Positions 9,553 through 51,505 of a stretch of DNA of 64,000 bases are shown here, piece after piece. Source of the DNA: Eledone cirrhosa. Its lineage: Eukaryota. The stretch spans positions 57,660,001-57,724,000 of the forward strand of contig OZ024741.1 in NCBI GenBank assembly GCA_964016885.1. Reading direction: 5' to 3'. Within the stretch, counting starts at the first letter, position 1, and every line of letters begins with the position of its first letter. The notes beneath the pieces are model-generated. The model had not been told where the DNA came from, made no database searches, and saw only the letters and a list, made by a program, of their open reading frames with translations. The position numbers and the translations under genes are program-made.

Positions 9553-9636
9553 ATCTGATGATGTCACAATGGTATGGGTTGCTGTTGTAATGATCACATA
9601 ACAGTTTCACACTGGTGCCACAGAAATACGTATTAT
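9553..9636 (+). ncRNA. Relic type I hammerhead ribozyme
   Basis: CTGATGA (9555-9561), imperfect stem II, GAAA (9623-9626), palindromic atacgtat, then TT. Only 2 bp of stem I remain. Confidence 0.45.
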
Positions 9637-10010
9637 CCAATAAATTTATATATATATATATATATATATATATATATATATATATATATATATATATATA
9701 TATATACACACACACACACATTATATATATATATATATATATTTATGTCTACACCAAATCTTTCTCATTAAAAACTTCTTTATCTTCAAATCTATATAAT
9801 ATATATATACATTGAGCTAATTCTAAAAAGCTGTGGCAATTATATACTATCATATAATTCTCTATTTTCCTTTGAGCTTTGCTATATATATATATATATA
9901 TATATATATAAATATATATATATATATATATATATATATTTATATATATATATATATATATATATATATATATATATATATATATATGATTAGTTACAAC
10001 AGTGATATAT

Positions 10011-10060
10011 ACAGGTAATTAAATTTCGTTGGGTTATACAATCCAACACATTCAGCCTGT
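10011..10060 (-). ncRNA. Degenerate hammerhead, inverted copy of 10112-10161
   Basis: Minus strand reads acagg CTGAATGT gttggattgtataacccaac GAAA tttaat TA cctgt. The final A of the 5' core segment is changed to U. Confidence 0.55.
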
Positions 10061-10111
10061 TATATAAAATATAAATGGCTTTTTATTTATTTTTTTAAAA
10101 AATTTTAAATA

Positions 10112-10161
10112 ACAGGCTGAATGAGTTGGGGTGTATACTCCAACGAAACTTAAGTACTTGT
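10112..10161 (+). ncRNA. Type I hammerhead with a 1-nt core insertion (CUGAAUGA)
   Basis: acagg CTGAATGA gttgggg-tgtata-ctccaac GAAA cttaag TA cttgt: stem I 5 bp, stem II at least 7 bp, palindromic acttaagt, GUA site. Confidence 0.65.
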
Positions 10162-10310
10162 ATAACTAATTATACAGGTTCACTGTTGTAACTAATCATA
10201 CTTAACTCATCCTATGGACTGAGTTCTCTTACCCTTGGATAATTCTATCAAAATTATACTACGTTAGTGGTTTCGGCTTGTGTGTTCAGCATGCCTTTAT
10301 ATATATATAT

Positions 10311-48797: not shown

Positions 48798-48834
48798 TAT
48801 CATCTAATGATCTATATCATGTAATGAGGGACAA

Positions 48835-50500
48835 TTACATATCTAATTGTGGTTTATATTTGTTAATGAATTGTTTTTCTTTATTTATTCTCTGTTGTTG
48901 AAGGAAGGAGACTGAGCATTTGTAGATGGGATGATTTTGAATTTGGGTAAGTCCATTCCTGCACATGTTGAAATTGGATAAGTCCATTCCTGCACATGCT
49001 GCATTGTGACTGCTTAGGGGGATTTGTCTCATGTTTTCATCATGGATTTGTTGGCGGTGTATGGTAATTCTTTTGCATAATGACACTCCCATCTGTCCTA
49101 TGTAATTTTGCAAACATCCACGGCATATAAACACATAGATTAGGTTTTCCGAGTTGCAGGTGAAATTTTCTTTTACTCTAAAGGTTTGTCTGTCCTTAAA
49201 TTTGAATTCTGGTCTCTCAATTAGAAGTACCACAATCTATTCTTCCATATTTTGTAGTAGTAGTGTTGAGGATTTGTTTGTGGGCTTTTGTCCCAGTAAG
49301 GATATGTTTTAGTGTTTTGGACTGCTTTTTACTTTTGATGATTTGGTGTGTTTCTAGAATTTTTTTCATTTTTTTCATCTTCTGGTTTTGTTTTTTGTTT
49401 TCCTTAGTTCTTGGATATCTATAAGCTTTGCCCTTTCTATTCCGTTTGTGATTATGCCTTATGGGAATGTTCTTTGGATGAGTGTATTTTTCAGTTCATC
49501 AAGTCATTGCTTACGTTTGATGGGTCCAATACTATCGTGCAAATTCTTTTTATTAGGTTAAATGGAATGTCCAGTTTCGTGTGTTTTGGTTGACTTAATG
49601 TTGTTTGTTTCTCTGTTTTGTGTGGGTCTGTAGGTTGATCTTTTATGGAAATTATTGTAGCACTGGAGTGGAACCTGTTATAGTTCTTCTTGTGTAGGTA
49701 TTATGTTGGAATTTCATGTCCTCTGGATGAATTTGAGTTGAGAAGAATTACATCTGTGGTTAACTGTTTCTGCAAAAGTTCCTGCTTTGTTCAATTTCTG
49801 TATGAAGGGGTTTGTCTAAGGGCCGTATTTAAAAAGAATTTCTCTTTATATTTATAGAACCAATTTTCACTCTCTTTTTATCATTGCAGTGATATAAGTT
49901 TCCAGAGTTTTAATAGGTTTTGCAAGATTGGCCCTTCAACATTTTTAACACATTCCTCTCCCATTTATTAGTTAATATTTTTGTATTTTTGTTCACTTGT
50001 AGTGGTGACTCTTAATGTTAAAAATTCTATTTCCATCTTCTTTTTGTTGAGTGACGTTTTTTCCTGTAGTTTTCTTTATTGTTCTGATTCATTAGTTATC
50101 AGTTTTATTTGTAATTTTCTGGGTACTGTCAGTAGGATAGAGCTTATCCATTTCTCATAGATTCCAGCTTTGTTCATATTTTTCACTATGTTCCAAAATG
50201 TGAATTTTCTTGTTTTTAAGTGTATTTTCCAACTGTCCGATTTTGGTTTTGATGCAGTGTGAAGCTTCTTATTCTATTTTATTGCTCATTAATTATTCCA
50301 TTGCATTACATAATTGCTGCATGTTGAGATTGAACTCATTATTGGTTGTTCTTCTGTTGTCTTTGTTATTGCAGTCACATGTAGAGTTGTGAAGTTTATC
50401 ACGTTTTTCTGTTAGGATTGTTATATCATGTAGTTCTTTTAAGATGTCTTCATCGATACTTGTGTTTATGGTGTCAGTGTTCAGTCCCATTTTCTGGATT
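48835..50500 (-). pseudogene. Degraded Penelope-like element with C-terminal GIY-YIG
   Basis: FTCNSENLIYVFICRGCLQNYIGQ...KEKQFINKYKPQL is homologous to 31998-32492. The upstream extent is inferred from A-rich coding-like minus-strand sequence. Confidence 0.75.
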
Positions 50501-50746
50501 TATATAGTTGATAATAGTTGTGAAAGGGGGTAAAGTACTTGACTGGTACTGTATTTTATAGACCATGGAAGGATGGCCATCAAAGTTAATGTTGACACAC
50601 ACATACACATACATTAAATGATGCTGATGATATATAAATATATATAAATATATATCTTTACGGACACGTAACGCTCTTATTTTATTTTATATTTTTTATT
50701 TCATTTCCATTTTATCTATATTAATATTTTCATTATCTCATCTGAA

Positions 50747-50868
50747 GTTCTGAAGATCTGCTCTATAATATAACTTAAGTTACTTATCTTTCTCTGAACC
50801 AGATCAATAACGATCTCGTAATCGATTGATCCAGAAACATTATATGGAGTAGTGAAACAATTGTAAAC
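50747..50868 (+). ncRNA. Type I hammerhead with greatly extended stem II
   Basis: gtt CTGAAGA t-ctgctctata...tatggagtag-t GAAA caattg TA aac; ~75-nt insert with internal hairpins; stem I only 3 bp. Confidence 0.6.
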
Positions 50869-51441
50869 GGACATTATTATTCCTTACATTAAACTGCAAT
50901 TAATGTTGACACTCTTTAACTAACGTCTTCTATGTGAGTTTTGTGGTCTTGATTTGTTTAAATAATGAATATAAATATATATATATATATATATATATAT
51001 ATATATATATATATATATAATCATCATCGTCATATATATATATAAAATAAAATAGACATTACAATACAAAGGGAGGAAACATAATAGTACTACTGATGAT
51101 GTCACAGGTGTATGATGAAAGAACTTTGATAGACTATATATATATATTTATATCTATATTTTTAACTGTTGGTCAAACAATGATAAACAATGATTGCCAA
51201 CTAAATTAACTATAGGGATATAGAATATATGGAAGCGAAAACCAATCCAAACTAAACAGTGAGTGTATTATATTGTATATTTCTGGCAATATTTTAATAA
51301 TATGACCCTCCCCAAATATAACAATATATATATATATATATATATATATATATATATATATATATATATATATATATATATATATATATATATATATACC
51401 AAGATATTAATAAATGGAAACTATATTTATAAAACCATATT

Positions 51442-51505
51442 TATTTTATTATATATATTTCAAGGGCGACCAAGCCAATCTTGGTGCGTTTCATCAGATA
51501 AAATA
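51442..51505 (-). ncRNA. Type I hammerhead, related to 15886-15956
   Basis: Minus strand reads tattttat CTGATGA aacgc-accaag-attgg-cttggt-cgccctt GAAA tatata TA ataaaata. Confidence 0.8.

Follow-up and report, generated by a model that had tools for sequence, protein, structure and literature searches.

Why does a stretch of animal DNA carry some 15 hammerhead ribozyme motifs of many different families within a few tens of kilobases, and what kind of element put them there? The question is raised by 64,000 nucleotides of the genome of Eledone cirrhosa (assembly GCA_964016885.1, contig OZ024741.1, positions 57,660,001 to 57,724,000 of the forward strand), hereafter the window, to whose first base the coordinates refer. 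An earlier note on this DNA had listed the motifs between 9553 and 51505 and had attributed them to a mostly non-coding population of retroelements that borrow the proteins of Penelope-like elements (PLEs). The answer that we hold to be highly probable is that the motifs are type I hammerhead folds, with predicted cleavage, in the terminal repeats of PLEs inserted at (TA)n tracts. Most would belong to 5'-truncated copies of coding elements of the Hydra clade and of Neptune type, accompanied by two non-coding units that are likely moved by the same enzymes.

Hammerhead Load of the Window and of the Genome

Motifs were sought with a type I hammerhead descriptor that accepts the U3-A8 core, U4C, a one-base core insertion, a non-standard pair at 10.1/11.1 and a long helix II, and matches with a score of at least 22 were taken to pass. 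A strict version caught three sites only, and the descriptor was loosened after sight of the sites in the window, so the fair independent test is a genome sample of 60 evenly spaced 10-kb stretches (599.6 kb in total; the assembly spans 3.0 Gb). The window holds 11 matches compared with a mean of 0.09 (maximum 2) in 216 block dinucleotide shuffles, and the sample holds 44 compared with 1.5 in 20 shuffles. The motif count, which the earlier note expected to exceed that of dinucleotide-shuffled DNA, is thus well above it in both sets. The sampled density of 73 motifs per Mb (bootstrap 48-100) corresponds to approximately 2.2 × 10^5 motifs genome-wide (1.4-3.0 × 10^5). The idea that the window is a hotspot or island was rejected, since its density surpasses the genome mean by a factor of only about 2.3 (P 0.027 in a resampling test); for hammerhead load it is an ordinary sample of its genome.

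All 15 coordinates of the earlier note hold a type I fold or a damaged copy of one, and they do fall into many distinct families, 11 in number. Nine sites pass the threshold (10112, 15886, 16411, 21285, 27910, 28510, 29034, 29590 and 50747), while the remaining six (9553, 10011, 28345, 30876, 33699 and 51442) stay below it as decayed, split or variant family members. Three pairs (10011/10112, 21285/27910 and 28345/28510) are the two inverted arms of single insertions, which reduces the 15 sites to 12 insertions rather than 15 independent ones. The conserved segments (CUGANGA, GAAA and UH) and the helices follow the type I order, with family-wide deviations in family F2 (A13C) and in an additional family, K (U4A). 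Two matches lie beyond the earlier list, namely a U3-A8 hammerhead at 46373..46421 (-), with a score of 29, and a weak fold with a long helix II and a weak helix III at 7743-7889 (+), with a score of 22. No relatives of either were present among 389 loci, and the fold at 7743 may be a chance match.

A search of the window against Rfam returned nothing at gathering score, and runs by E-value gave only microsatellite-like microRNA matches among the best 150 of 451 rows, without a hammerhead at 27910. The scrambled type-SGC order (site-GAAA-CUGANGA) had no match in the window scan, and the two matches to other scrambled orders are at chance level (2.3 expected). One candidate type-SGC hammerhead was seen in the genome sample (L241:9438-9495, minus strand). 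The sample further contains a long A/T-rich tandem array (L246; G000:C7:30000001-30010000) with a weak U3-A8 hammerhead-like fold in many of its units (scores 18-21), which is either a decayed retrozyme array or a chance satellite.

Family E, an Intact Hydra-Clade Element

The sites at 21285 and 27910 lie at the ends of one inverted insertion of 6.7 kb (21202..27978, both arms, centre at 24623/24624), whose arms are identical at 3328 of 3341 aligned bases. The two hammerheads (left arm, 21285..21335, minus strand; right arm, 27910..27960, plus strand) are identical and carry U-U at 10.1/11.1 and a 4-bp helix III with an 8-nt loop. The last 69 codons of an open reading frame (ORF) meet at the centre of the palindrome (24615-24821 on the plus and 24426-24632 on the minus strand), and a 65-nt tail, which equals the start of the 5' untranslated region (UTR), is present on one arm only (21202-21266). 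An assembly fold-back was considered as the source of this palindrome and discarded: 13 bases and 30 gap positions distinguish the two arms, the tail sits on a single arm, and like palindromes of 0.1-13 kb occur at many loci.

Long copies of the family contain an intact ORF of 713 codons that comprises a reverse transcriptase (RT) and, at its C-terminus, a GIY-YIG domain. This ORF is free of stops in 26 of the 30 best genomic copies (97-100% identity), and a 186-nt stretch is identical in 40 of 42 copies among the matches listed. Full copies read hammerhead, ORF, 3' UTR and hammerhead, with a unit of 5.4 kb; 30 loci were fetched, and in 20 of the 27 in which the start was located a hammerhead precedes the ATG, with the predicted cut at a distance of 136 nt. 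All 30 fetched ends adjoin (TA)n. The protein (P0001) shows the motifs RWR, SDKT, CNCLNKETC, CDLC and CMH, in line with the Hydra-clade motifs RW[KR], DKT, CxCx5C, CxxC and CxH, without CCHH (Craig et al. 2021, PMC8557442). Pfam gave only a weak GIY-YIG match (E 0.08), and a protein search returned 1325 relatives, nearly all without a name. Judged by these motifs and intact copies, family E is a Hydra-clade PLE that appears to be active.

The 3' UTR of family E measures 3.1 kb and is TA/TG-rich. Since this low-complexity DNA is copied along with the element, an active PLE spreads its own type of target. Low-complexity TA/TG/CA DNA of about 2.5 kb can be seen inside the 3' UTR at 21800-24250 and 25000-27450, and also in loci L189 and L202; in the former locus, an intact RTE-like ORF of 1210 amino acids is inserted in the 3' UTR of the family E copy (L189:4898-8527). 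A short palindrome at 30430-30520, between two (TA)n tracts, is built from nothing but a tail of the family E type, which equals the beginning of the 5' UTR, and is a very short inverted PLE insertion without hammerhead.

Other Families Linked to Coding Elements

Based on the ORFs found in longer genomic copies, eight of the 11 families appear to trace to coding PLEs: E, G, I, B, C and C2 to Hydra-type and F and F2 to Neptune-type elements. The description of the population as mostly non-coding elements that borrow PLE proteins is not supported, as only the families at 16411 (D) and 29590 (H) are non-coding. The family folds sit at the 3' ends of PLEs, which agrees with the assignment of the hammerheads to the PLE type in the earlier note. 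The end of a sense Hydra-type ORF lies at a constant distance upstream of the hammerhead in four loci for G, at least four for I, two for K and two for C2; the same link is seen in one locus and a diverged relative for C, and in one locus (L352) for B. A sense Neptune/Nematis-type ORF is linked to F in four loci and to F2 in the window copy and in L276. Families F and F2 were matched to the Neptune/Nematis type by its characteristic motifs (GxKF, DKG, a CX2-5CxxC linker and, at the C-terminus, GIY-YIG with CCHH); loci L342 and L343 carry GLKF, DKG, CGRSNCGTC and GIY-YIG, which do not separate Neptune from Nematis. Because long copies with an ORF exist for B, C, C2, E, F, F2, G and I, these families are not non-coding units of the retrozyme kind.

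Single copies rarely show their coding origin. An ORF remnant within 3.5 kb upstream accompanies nine of the 44 sampled motifs, and the long fetches L347, L353, L354 and L356 had no linked ORF, which truncation would lead one to expect. In most single copies the ORF is absent only because of 5' truncation: the ORF-less copies are collinear 3' fragments of the coding elements with variable 5' ends. The Hydra-type protein itself gave 95,071 initial candidates genome-wide, and its matches cover approximately 17.5 kb of the 600 kb sampled, or about 3%. The initial candidate counts per family (26 to 2616) do not represent copy numbers, as illustrated by family F, which gave 26 despite five F-like matches in 600 kb.

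In the window, family B is present as an inverted pair, composed of a mutated arm with A9U and a damaged helix III (9995..10064, minus strand) and a hammerhead at 10112..10161 (+) with the family-typical A6a insertion (CUGAAUGA) and a ACUUAAGU helix III; the one-locus ORF link weakly suggests that it is the 3' end of a Hydra-type PLE. Family C occurs as a 5'-truncated copy (15708..15991, plus strand) with a canonical hammerhead at 15886-15956 and a AUGCGCAU helix III, and L357 is the locus with a Hydra-type ORF end upstream. Family C2 has a copy at 51389..51645 (-) with a hammerhead at approximately 51442-51505 (AUAUAUAU); canonical folds exist elsewhere in the family, and the Hydra-type ORF ends about 1.2 kb upstream in its two loci. 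Family G, the 3' end of a Hydra-type PLE, is represented by a short copy (28991..29161, minus strand) whose hammerhead at 29034-29080 has the family-wide U4C core and a ACAAUUGU helix III, and by a second copy (33486..34207, plus strand) in which a 406-bp insertion (33737-34142) with (GAT)n at its end interrupts helix III of the hammerhead starting at 33699. The family I copy (50659..50969, plus strand) has the same ACAAUUGU and a branched helix II of about 95 nt in its hammerhead (50747-50868), and is the 3' end of a Hydra-type PLE as well.

Both Neptune-type families form inverted structures. Family F is an inverted pair (28207..28620, both strands) with a 62-nt tail on one arm, a hammerhead with G12A on the minus strand (28345-28382) and one with a U3-A8 core and ACCGGU on the plus strand (28510-28547). 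Family F2 (30725..33291, both strands) combines a hammerhead at 30876-30911 (-), with the family-wide U3-A8 and A13C, and a GIY-YIG remnant at 31983-32483 (+). Family K was missed by the earlier note; its hammerhead at 42741..42791 (-) scores 18, has the family-wide U4A core and a self-standing helix III and, going by the linked ORFs, is the 3' end of a Hydra-type PLE. With 15 BLAST matches in 600 kb, K is very abundant. Another family K end, with U4A and G12A in its hammerhead, is found at 63429-63500 (+), and a K fragment at 15532-15573 (-) retains only the part from helix III onward.

Two Non-Coding Units and a Decayed Family

Families D and H are non-coding short units with a type I hammerhead in tandem arrangement, the structure known from retrozymes. 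Family D forms a complete unit at 16008..16547 (+), which has a (TA)n tract on either side and measures approximately 525 bp, with a 13-nt terminal repeat in addition; its hammerhead (16411-16492, plus strand) has C-A at 10.1/11.1 and a ACUAAUUAGU helix III. Family H is a 659-bp unit (29303..30320, minus strand) present as a partial tandem with a short inverted piece, and its hammerhead (29590-29670, minus strand) is canonical with ACCAUGGU. Across the genome these are fixed units of 525 and 659 bp in head-to-tail partial tandems, few of which have two whole hammerheads. Initial candidates numbered 2495 for D (96-100% identical) and 2616 for H. The longest ATG frames count 34 and 47 codons, respectively, and a comparison of both units with four PLE proteins gave no match. 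D and H are likely mobilised in trans by PLE enzymes.

Family A is old and is not linked to a coding or a non-coding element (308 initial candidates; relatives 81-87% identical). Its decayed hammerhead at 9553..9636 (+) retains CUGAUGA, a long helix II and a AUACGUAU helix III but lost the distal 3' strand of stem I at the (TA)n junction; among its relatives, 13 of the 14 scorable ones pair the distal stem I at -7 kcal/mol or better (five of 20 loci were not parsed).

Target Sites and Insertion Ends

That all motifs lie within a few hundred bp of (TA)n tracts, as the earlier note had stated, is correct for 14 of the 15 sites, which are at most 300 bp away from (TA)6+; the site at 33699 is 641 bp away. 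As 54% of all positions in 9553-51505 share this proximity, targeting is shown by a directional test instead. For the 41 of the 44 sampled motifs with enough flank, (TA)4+ occurs within 150 nt downstream in 33 and upstream in 11, compared with 18% of random positions, and the proposed homing to (TA)n is borne out.

In most families, copies have two fixed 3' ends that abut (TA)n, 15-250 nt downstream of the predicted cut (approximately 21 and 89 nt for E, 43 and 133 for C, 58 and 112 for D, and 26 and 44 for K). Inverted pairs nearly always combine one long and one short arm (about 44 of 49), namely in 12 of 12 resolved pairs out of 15 for E, 7 of 7 for C, 6 of 7 for D, 5 of 7 for G, 4 of 4 for K, 2 of 3 for B and 8 of 9 for F (these seven families make up the tally; H, I and C2 are not counted). 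Partial tandems of the pseudo-long terminal repeat (pLTR), an inverted 5'-truncated arm, a tail at one end and a (TA)n target together reproduce the insertion structure of PLEs.

Helix III, Covariation and Core Variants

Helix III was evaluated at a fixed length of 8 nt in sample and window matches, with its inner four bases excluded from the scanner score. This centre is self-complementary in 27 of 27 eight-nt segments (background 17%), in 20 of them by Watson-Crick pairs (background 11%), and the segments comprise 10 distinct sequences. For the short palindromic segments no monomer hairpin is predicted, E and K excepted, and self-duplex energies amount to -6 to -13 kcal/mol for most window motifs. 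The palindromes are compatible with dimers, through which the motifs may cleave. The picture of minimal motifs with a nearly universal palindromic stem III does not apply to every site, as 21285/27910 of family E show with their 4-bp helix III and 8-nt loop. As helix III forms on its own in families E and K, a minimal, dimer-only hammerhead is not true of all families.

Stem covariation among genomic copies, which the earlier note considered essential, is present. In the C-group (17 sequences), pairing holds in 95.5% of the cells and both partners vary in 10 of 21 pairs, a score reached by none of 500 shuffles; such double changes affect 3 of 20 pairs in the G-group, with 11 sequences (5 of 500 shuffles). 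Families A, C, C2 and their relatives (A2 alignment) share a mismatch that is conserved at position four of helix II although they are otherwise different, possibly reflecting a tertiary or protein contact.

A CUGANGA or U3-A8 core occurs in 38 of the 44 sampled matches, a set biased by the scanner. In deduplicated copies from the fetched loci, several families show family-wide core changes: CAGAAGA (U4A) together with GAAA is present in 22 of 26 parsed copies of K, U3-A8 combined with C13 (A13C) in 12 of 12 of F2, C4 (U4C) in 42 of 44 of the G-group, and the additional A (A6a) in 13 of 14 of B. U3-A8, U4C, the A6a insertion and U10.1-U11.1 are described as natural variants that are active or weakly active (Perreault et al. 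2011, PMC3088659), and all four are shared with the motifs described here. Family-wide U4A and A13C are not among the variants in the available text of that survey, nor did a literature search find them; Lunse et al. may list them.

Proposed Mechanism and Rival Explanations

Insertion could proceed as in the anole PLE, whose protein nicks both strands of AT-rich DNA in vitro and uses two internal RT start sites that define the tail, and for which mutation of the hammerhead left insertion normal and cleavage depended on protein (Frangieh et al. 2024, PMC11167929). By analogy, tandem read-through RNA would be bound by the RT/GIY-YIG protein, which would nick both strands of AT-rich DNA, and reverse transcription would start at two internal sites downstream of the hammerhead. 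Such a process would account for the two kinds of end, short or with a tail, as well as for partial tandems and for inverted arms, and early termination would leave ORF-less 3' stubs. As each new copy carries a hammerhead, we propose that the very high motif count results from this process. The ribozyme itself probably cuts slowly and with assistance from dimer formation or protein; it would trim tandem RNA to units and would not be needed for the insertion step itself; dimer cleavage with low in vitro activity has been proposed before (Cervera and De la Peña 2014, PMC4209133; summarised in PMC6765202).

Several observations weigh against this reading. The ORF links of B, C, C2 and F2 come from one or two loci each, where nested insertions are possible, and a search for an autonomous partner of D or H found only diverged non-coding relatives. 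The covariation rows were picked by a structure scan and lean towards the fold. Inserted copies extend past the predicted cut, so the template was either uncut or religated, between which sequence cannot tell. Amplification has occurred in K, F2 and B, whose altered cores would be expected to slow or abolish cleavage, and this argues against a need for catalysis. Finally, no strand bias between the two start sites was seen in vitro (PMC11167929), and this alone leaves the almost constant presence of a single tail unexplained.

The main rival is the retrozyme model, in which hammerheads cut tandem transcripts and the units ligate to circles that serve as RT template in coding and non-coding families alike. 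It accounts for the complementary DNA crossing the predicted cut in every family and for the head-to-tail partial tandems of D and H, and a circular template fits the observed junctions equally well (PMC7229834; Li et al. 2026, 10.64898/2026.07.22.740005); circular retrozyme RNAs have been demonstrated in coral, mussel and axolotl (PMC7229834). Uncut tandem RNA, however, yields identical junctions and was the dominant substrate of the anole PLE in vitro, for which no RNA-seq ends mapped to the cut (PMC11167929). Moreover, altered-core families were still amplified, and the circle for family E would be 5.4 kb, far above the reported 170-400 nt, so we rate this model as a lesser possibility, albeit one to be taken seriously. 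Alternatively, the fold may be kept as a structure that would guide a pair of templates to both cut ends, either as an RNA-RNA dimer interface or by binding protein, with cleavage being dispensable. A palindromic helix III that covaries yet stays self-complementary, the self-duplex energies, the predominance of asymmetric inverted insertions, the family-wide core changes and the catalytic mutants that left in vitro insertion unchanged (PMC11167929) all suit such a role. The canonical or known-active cores of most sampled matches nonetheless point to selection for catalysis, and Naiads make inverted insertions without canonical hammerheads (PMC8557442); we regard a purely structural role as unlikely. 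A more speculative form, which we consider similarly doubtful, takes the fold as a template-pairing device instead of a cutter in what would be the densest known hammerhead load (about 70 per Mb, 2 × 10^5). RNAs joined through helix III would be handed to a protein dimer and primed one per start site, giving asymmetric inverted insertions, and crippled cores (U4A, A13C and A6a) would still reach thousands to tens of thousands of copies.

The population of mostly non-coding, ribozyme-bearing elements put forward in the earlier note holds for D and H, and a PLE ORF remnant is missing from the 3.5 kb upstream of 35 of the 44 sampled motifs. As a description of the whole it is improbable, given the eight families with coding elements and the collinearity of their ORF-less 3' fragments. 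Chance folds in AT-rich, repeat-rich DNA deserve consideration in a TA-rich region with a short core, a scanner tuned on window sites and a weak match at 7743. Nevertheless, the shuffle comparison and the C-group covariation refute this explanation, and together with the fixed position of the motifs at element ends they leave it a practically negligible probability.

Comparison with Known Systems

The kind of element is known in every main respect, as PLE hammerheads, a Hydra clade with (TA)n targets, one-tail inverted insertions and an octopus Hydra family with a hammerhead have all been described. The last, Hydra-1_Obim, prefers (TA)n and has an annotated hammerhead (Craig et al. 2021 supplement, PMC8557442); family E differs from it in sequence, as compared by eye. 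With the Hydra clade as presented there (PMC8557442), our elements share a single RT and GIY-YIG ORF, a type I hammerhead located close to the 3' end and insertion at (TA)n, and their copies likewise form partial tandems and inverted arms and bear a tail at one end. They differ in that at least seven distinct Hydra-type families coexist, one of them young with intact copies, in that the family E unit of 5.4 kb exceeds the usual size of under 3 kb, and in tails of approximately 20-135 nt instead of 30-40.

Like the minimal PLE hammerheads (PMC4209133), those described here are type I folds located in pLTRs and belong to many heterogeneous families, of which most copies are single and truncated. 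Pairs on opposite strands lie 100-700 bp apart in both, and the U3-A8 core, a palindromic helix III and predicted dimers recur as well. With a helix III of 6-17 nt they match the palindromic-helix variants rather than the strict min-HHR, and several have a branched helix II of 45-95 nt, unlike the hammerheads in the available text of that study. Counts there are in the thousands (about 9,000 in Xenopus), compared with the estimated 2 × 10^5 here. D and H are similar to metazoan non-LTR retrozymes (PMC7229834; 10.64898/2026.07.22.740005), being non-coding and low in GC, with one type I hammerhead and a partial tandem, and likely mobilised by PLEs. At 525 and 659 bp, however, they are dispersed with PLE-type inverted ends instead of forming long arrays; unlike retrozymes, the remaining eight families with an assignment are coding. 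The Anolis element Poseidon PAc (PMC11167929) likewise has two fixed 3' ends past the hammerhead, AT-rich targets and a hammerhead beside the ORF start. It belongs to a different clade, family E has its start sites in the 5' UTR instead of the ORF, and almost every inverted pair here, in contrast to Poseidon PAc, combines a long arm with a short one.

Why PLEs keep hammerheads is a question posed by the sole system studied in vitro, in which insertion takes place without cleavage (PMC11167929). With a number of families in parallel, of which one or more are active and have intact ORFs, with canonical next to altered cores and with two non-coding passengers, this genome makes the roles of cleavage, the palindrome and the two start sites directly testable. 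The points of interest are the hammerhead density and the family-wide core changes (U4A, U4C, A6a, and U3-A8 with A13C). The approximately 2 × 10^5 motifs estimated here exceed the 126,247 in the much larger axolotl genome (PMC7229834), although the counting methods differ. A literature search found no count of hammerheads in an octopus genome; an octopus repeat annotation (PMC13282606) reports recently active PLEs, and the words 'ribozyme', 'hammerhead' and 'Hydra' are absent from its main text.

Surrounding DNA

The window is a nest of retroelement remains among (TA)n tracts, with RTE- and Tx1-like ORFs. Contigs assembled from three runs on a single sample, whose kind is not recorded, span this DNA and carry no information on expression. 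PLE remnants comprise a Hydra-type RT remnant without assigned hammerhead (44280..45109, plus strand) and a Neptune-type remnant of the RT thumb and GIY-YIG (48838..49646, minus strand). A Tx1-like non-LTR element at 1159-6761 (+) has an ORF1 of 715 amino acids from stop to stop and an ORF2 with one stop near 4346; decayed relatives lie at 43448-44244 and 59962-62268. An uninterrupted RTE-like ORF of 1024 amino acids extends over 52568-55642 (+), and its last 708 bp recur inverted at 40497-41204 with 99% identity. Finally, a 16-bp minisatellite with 51 copies occupies 47507-48323.

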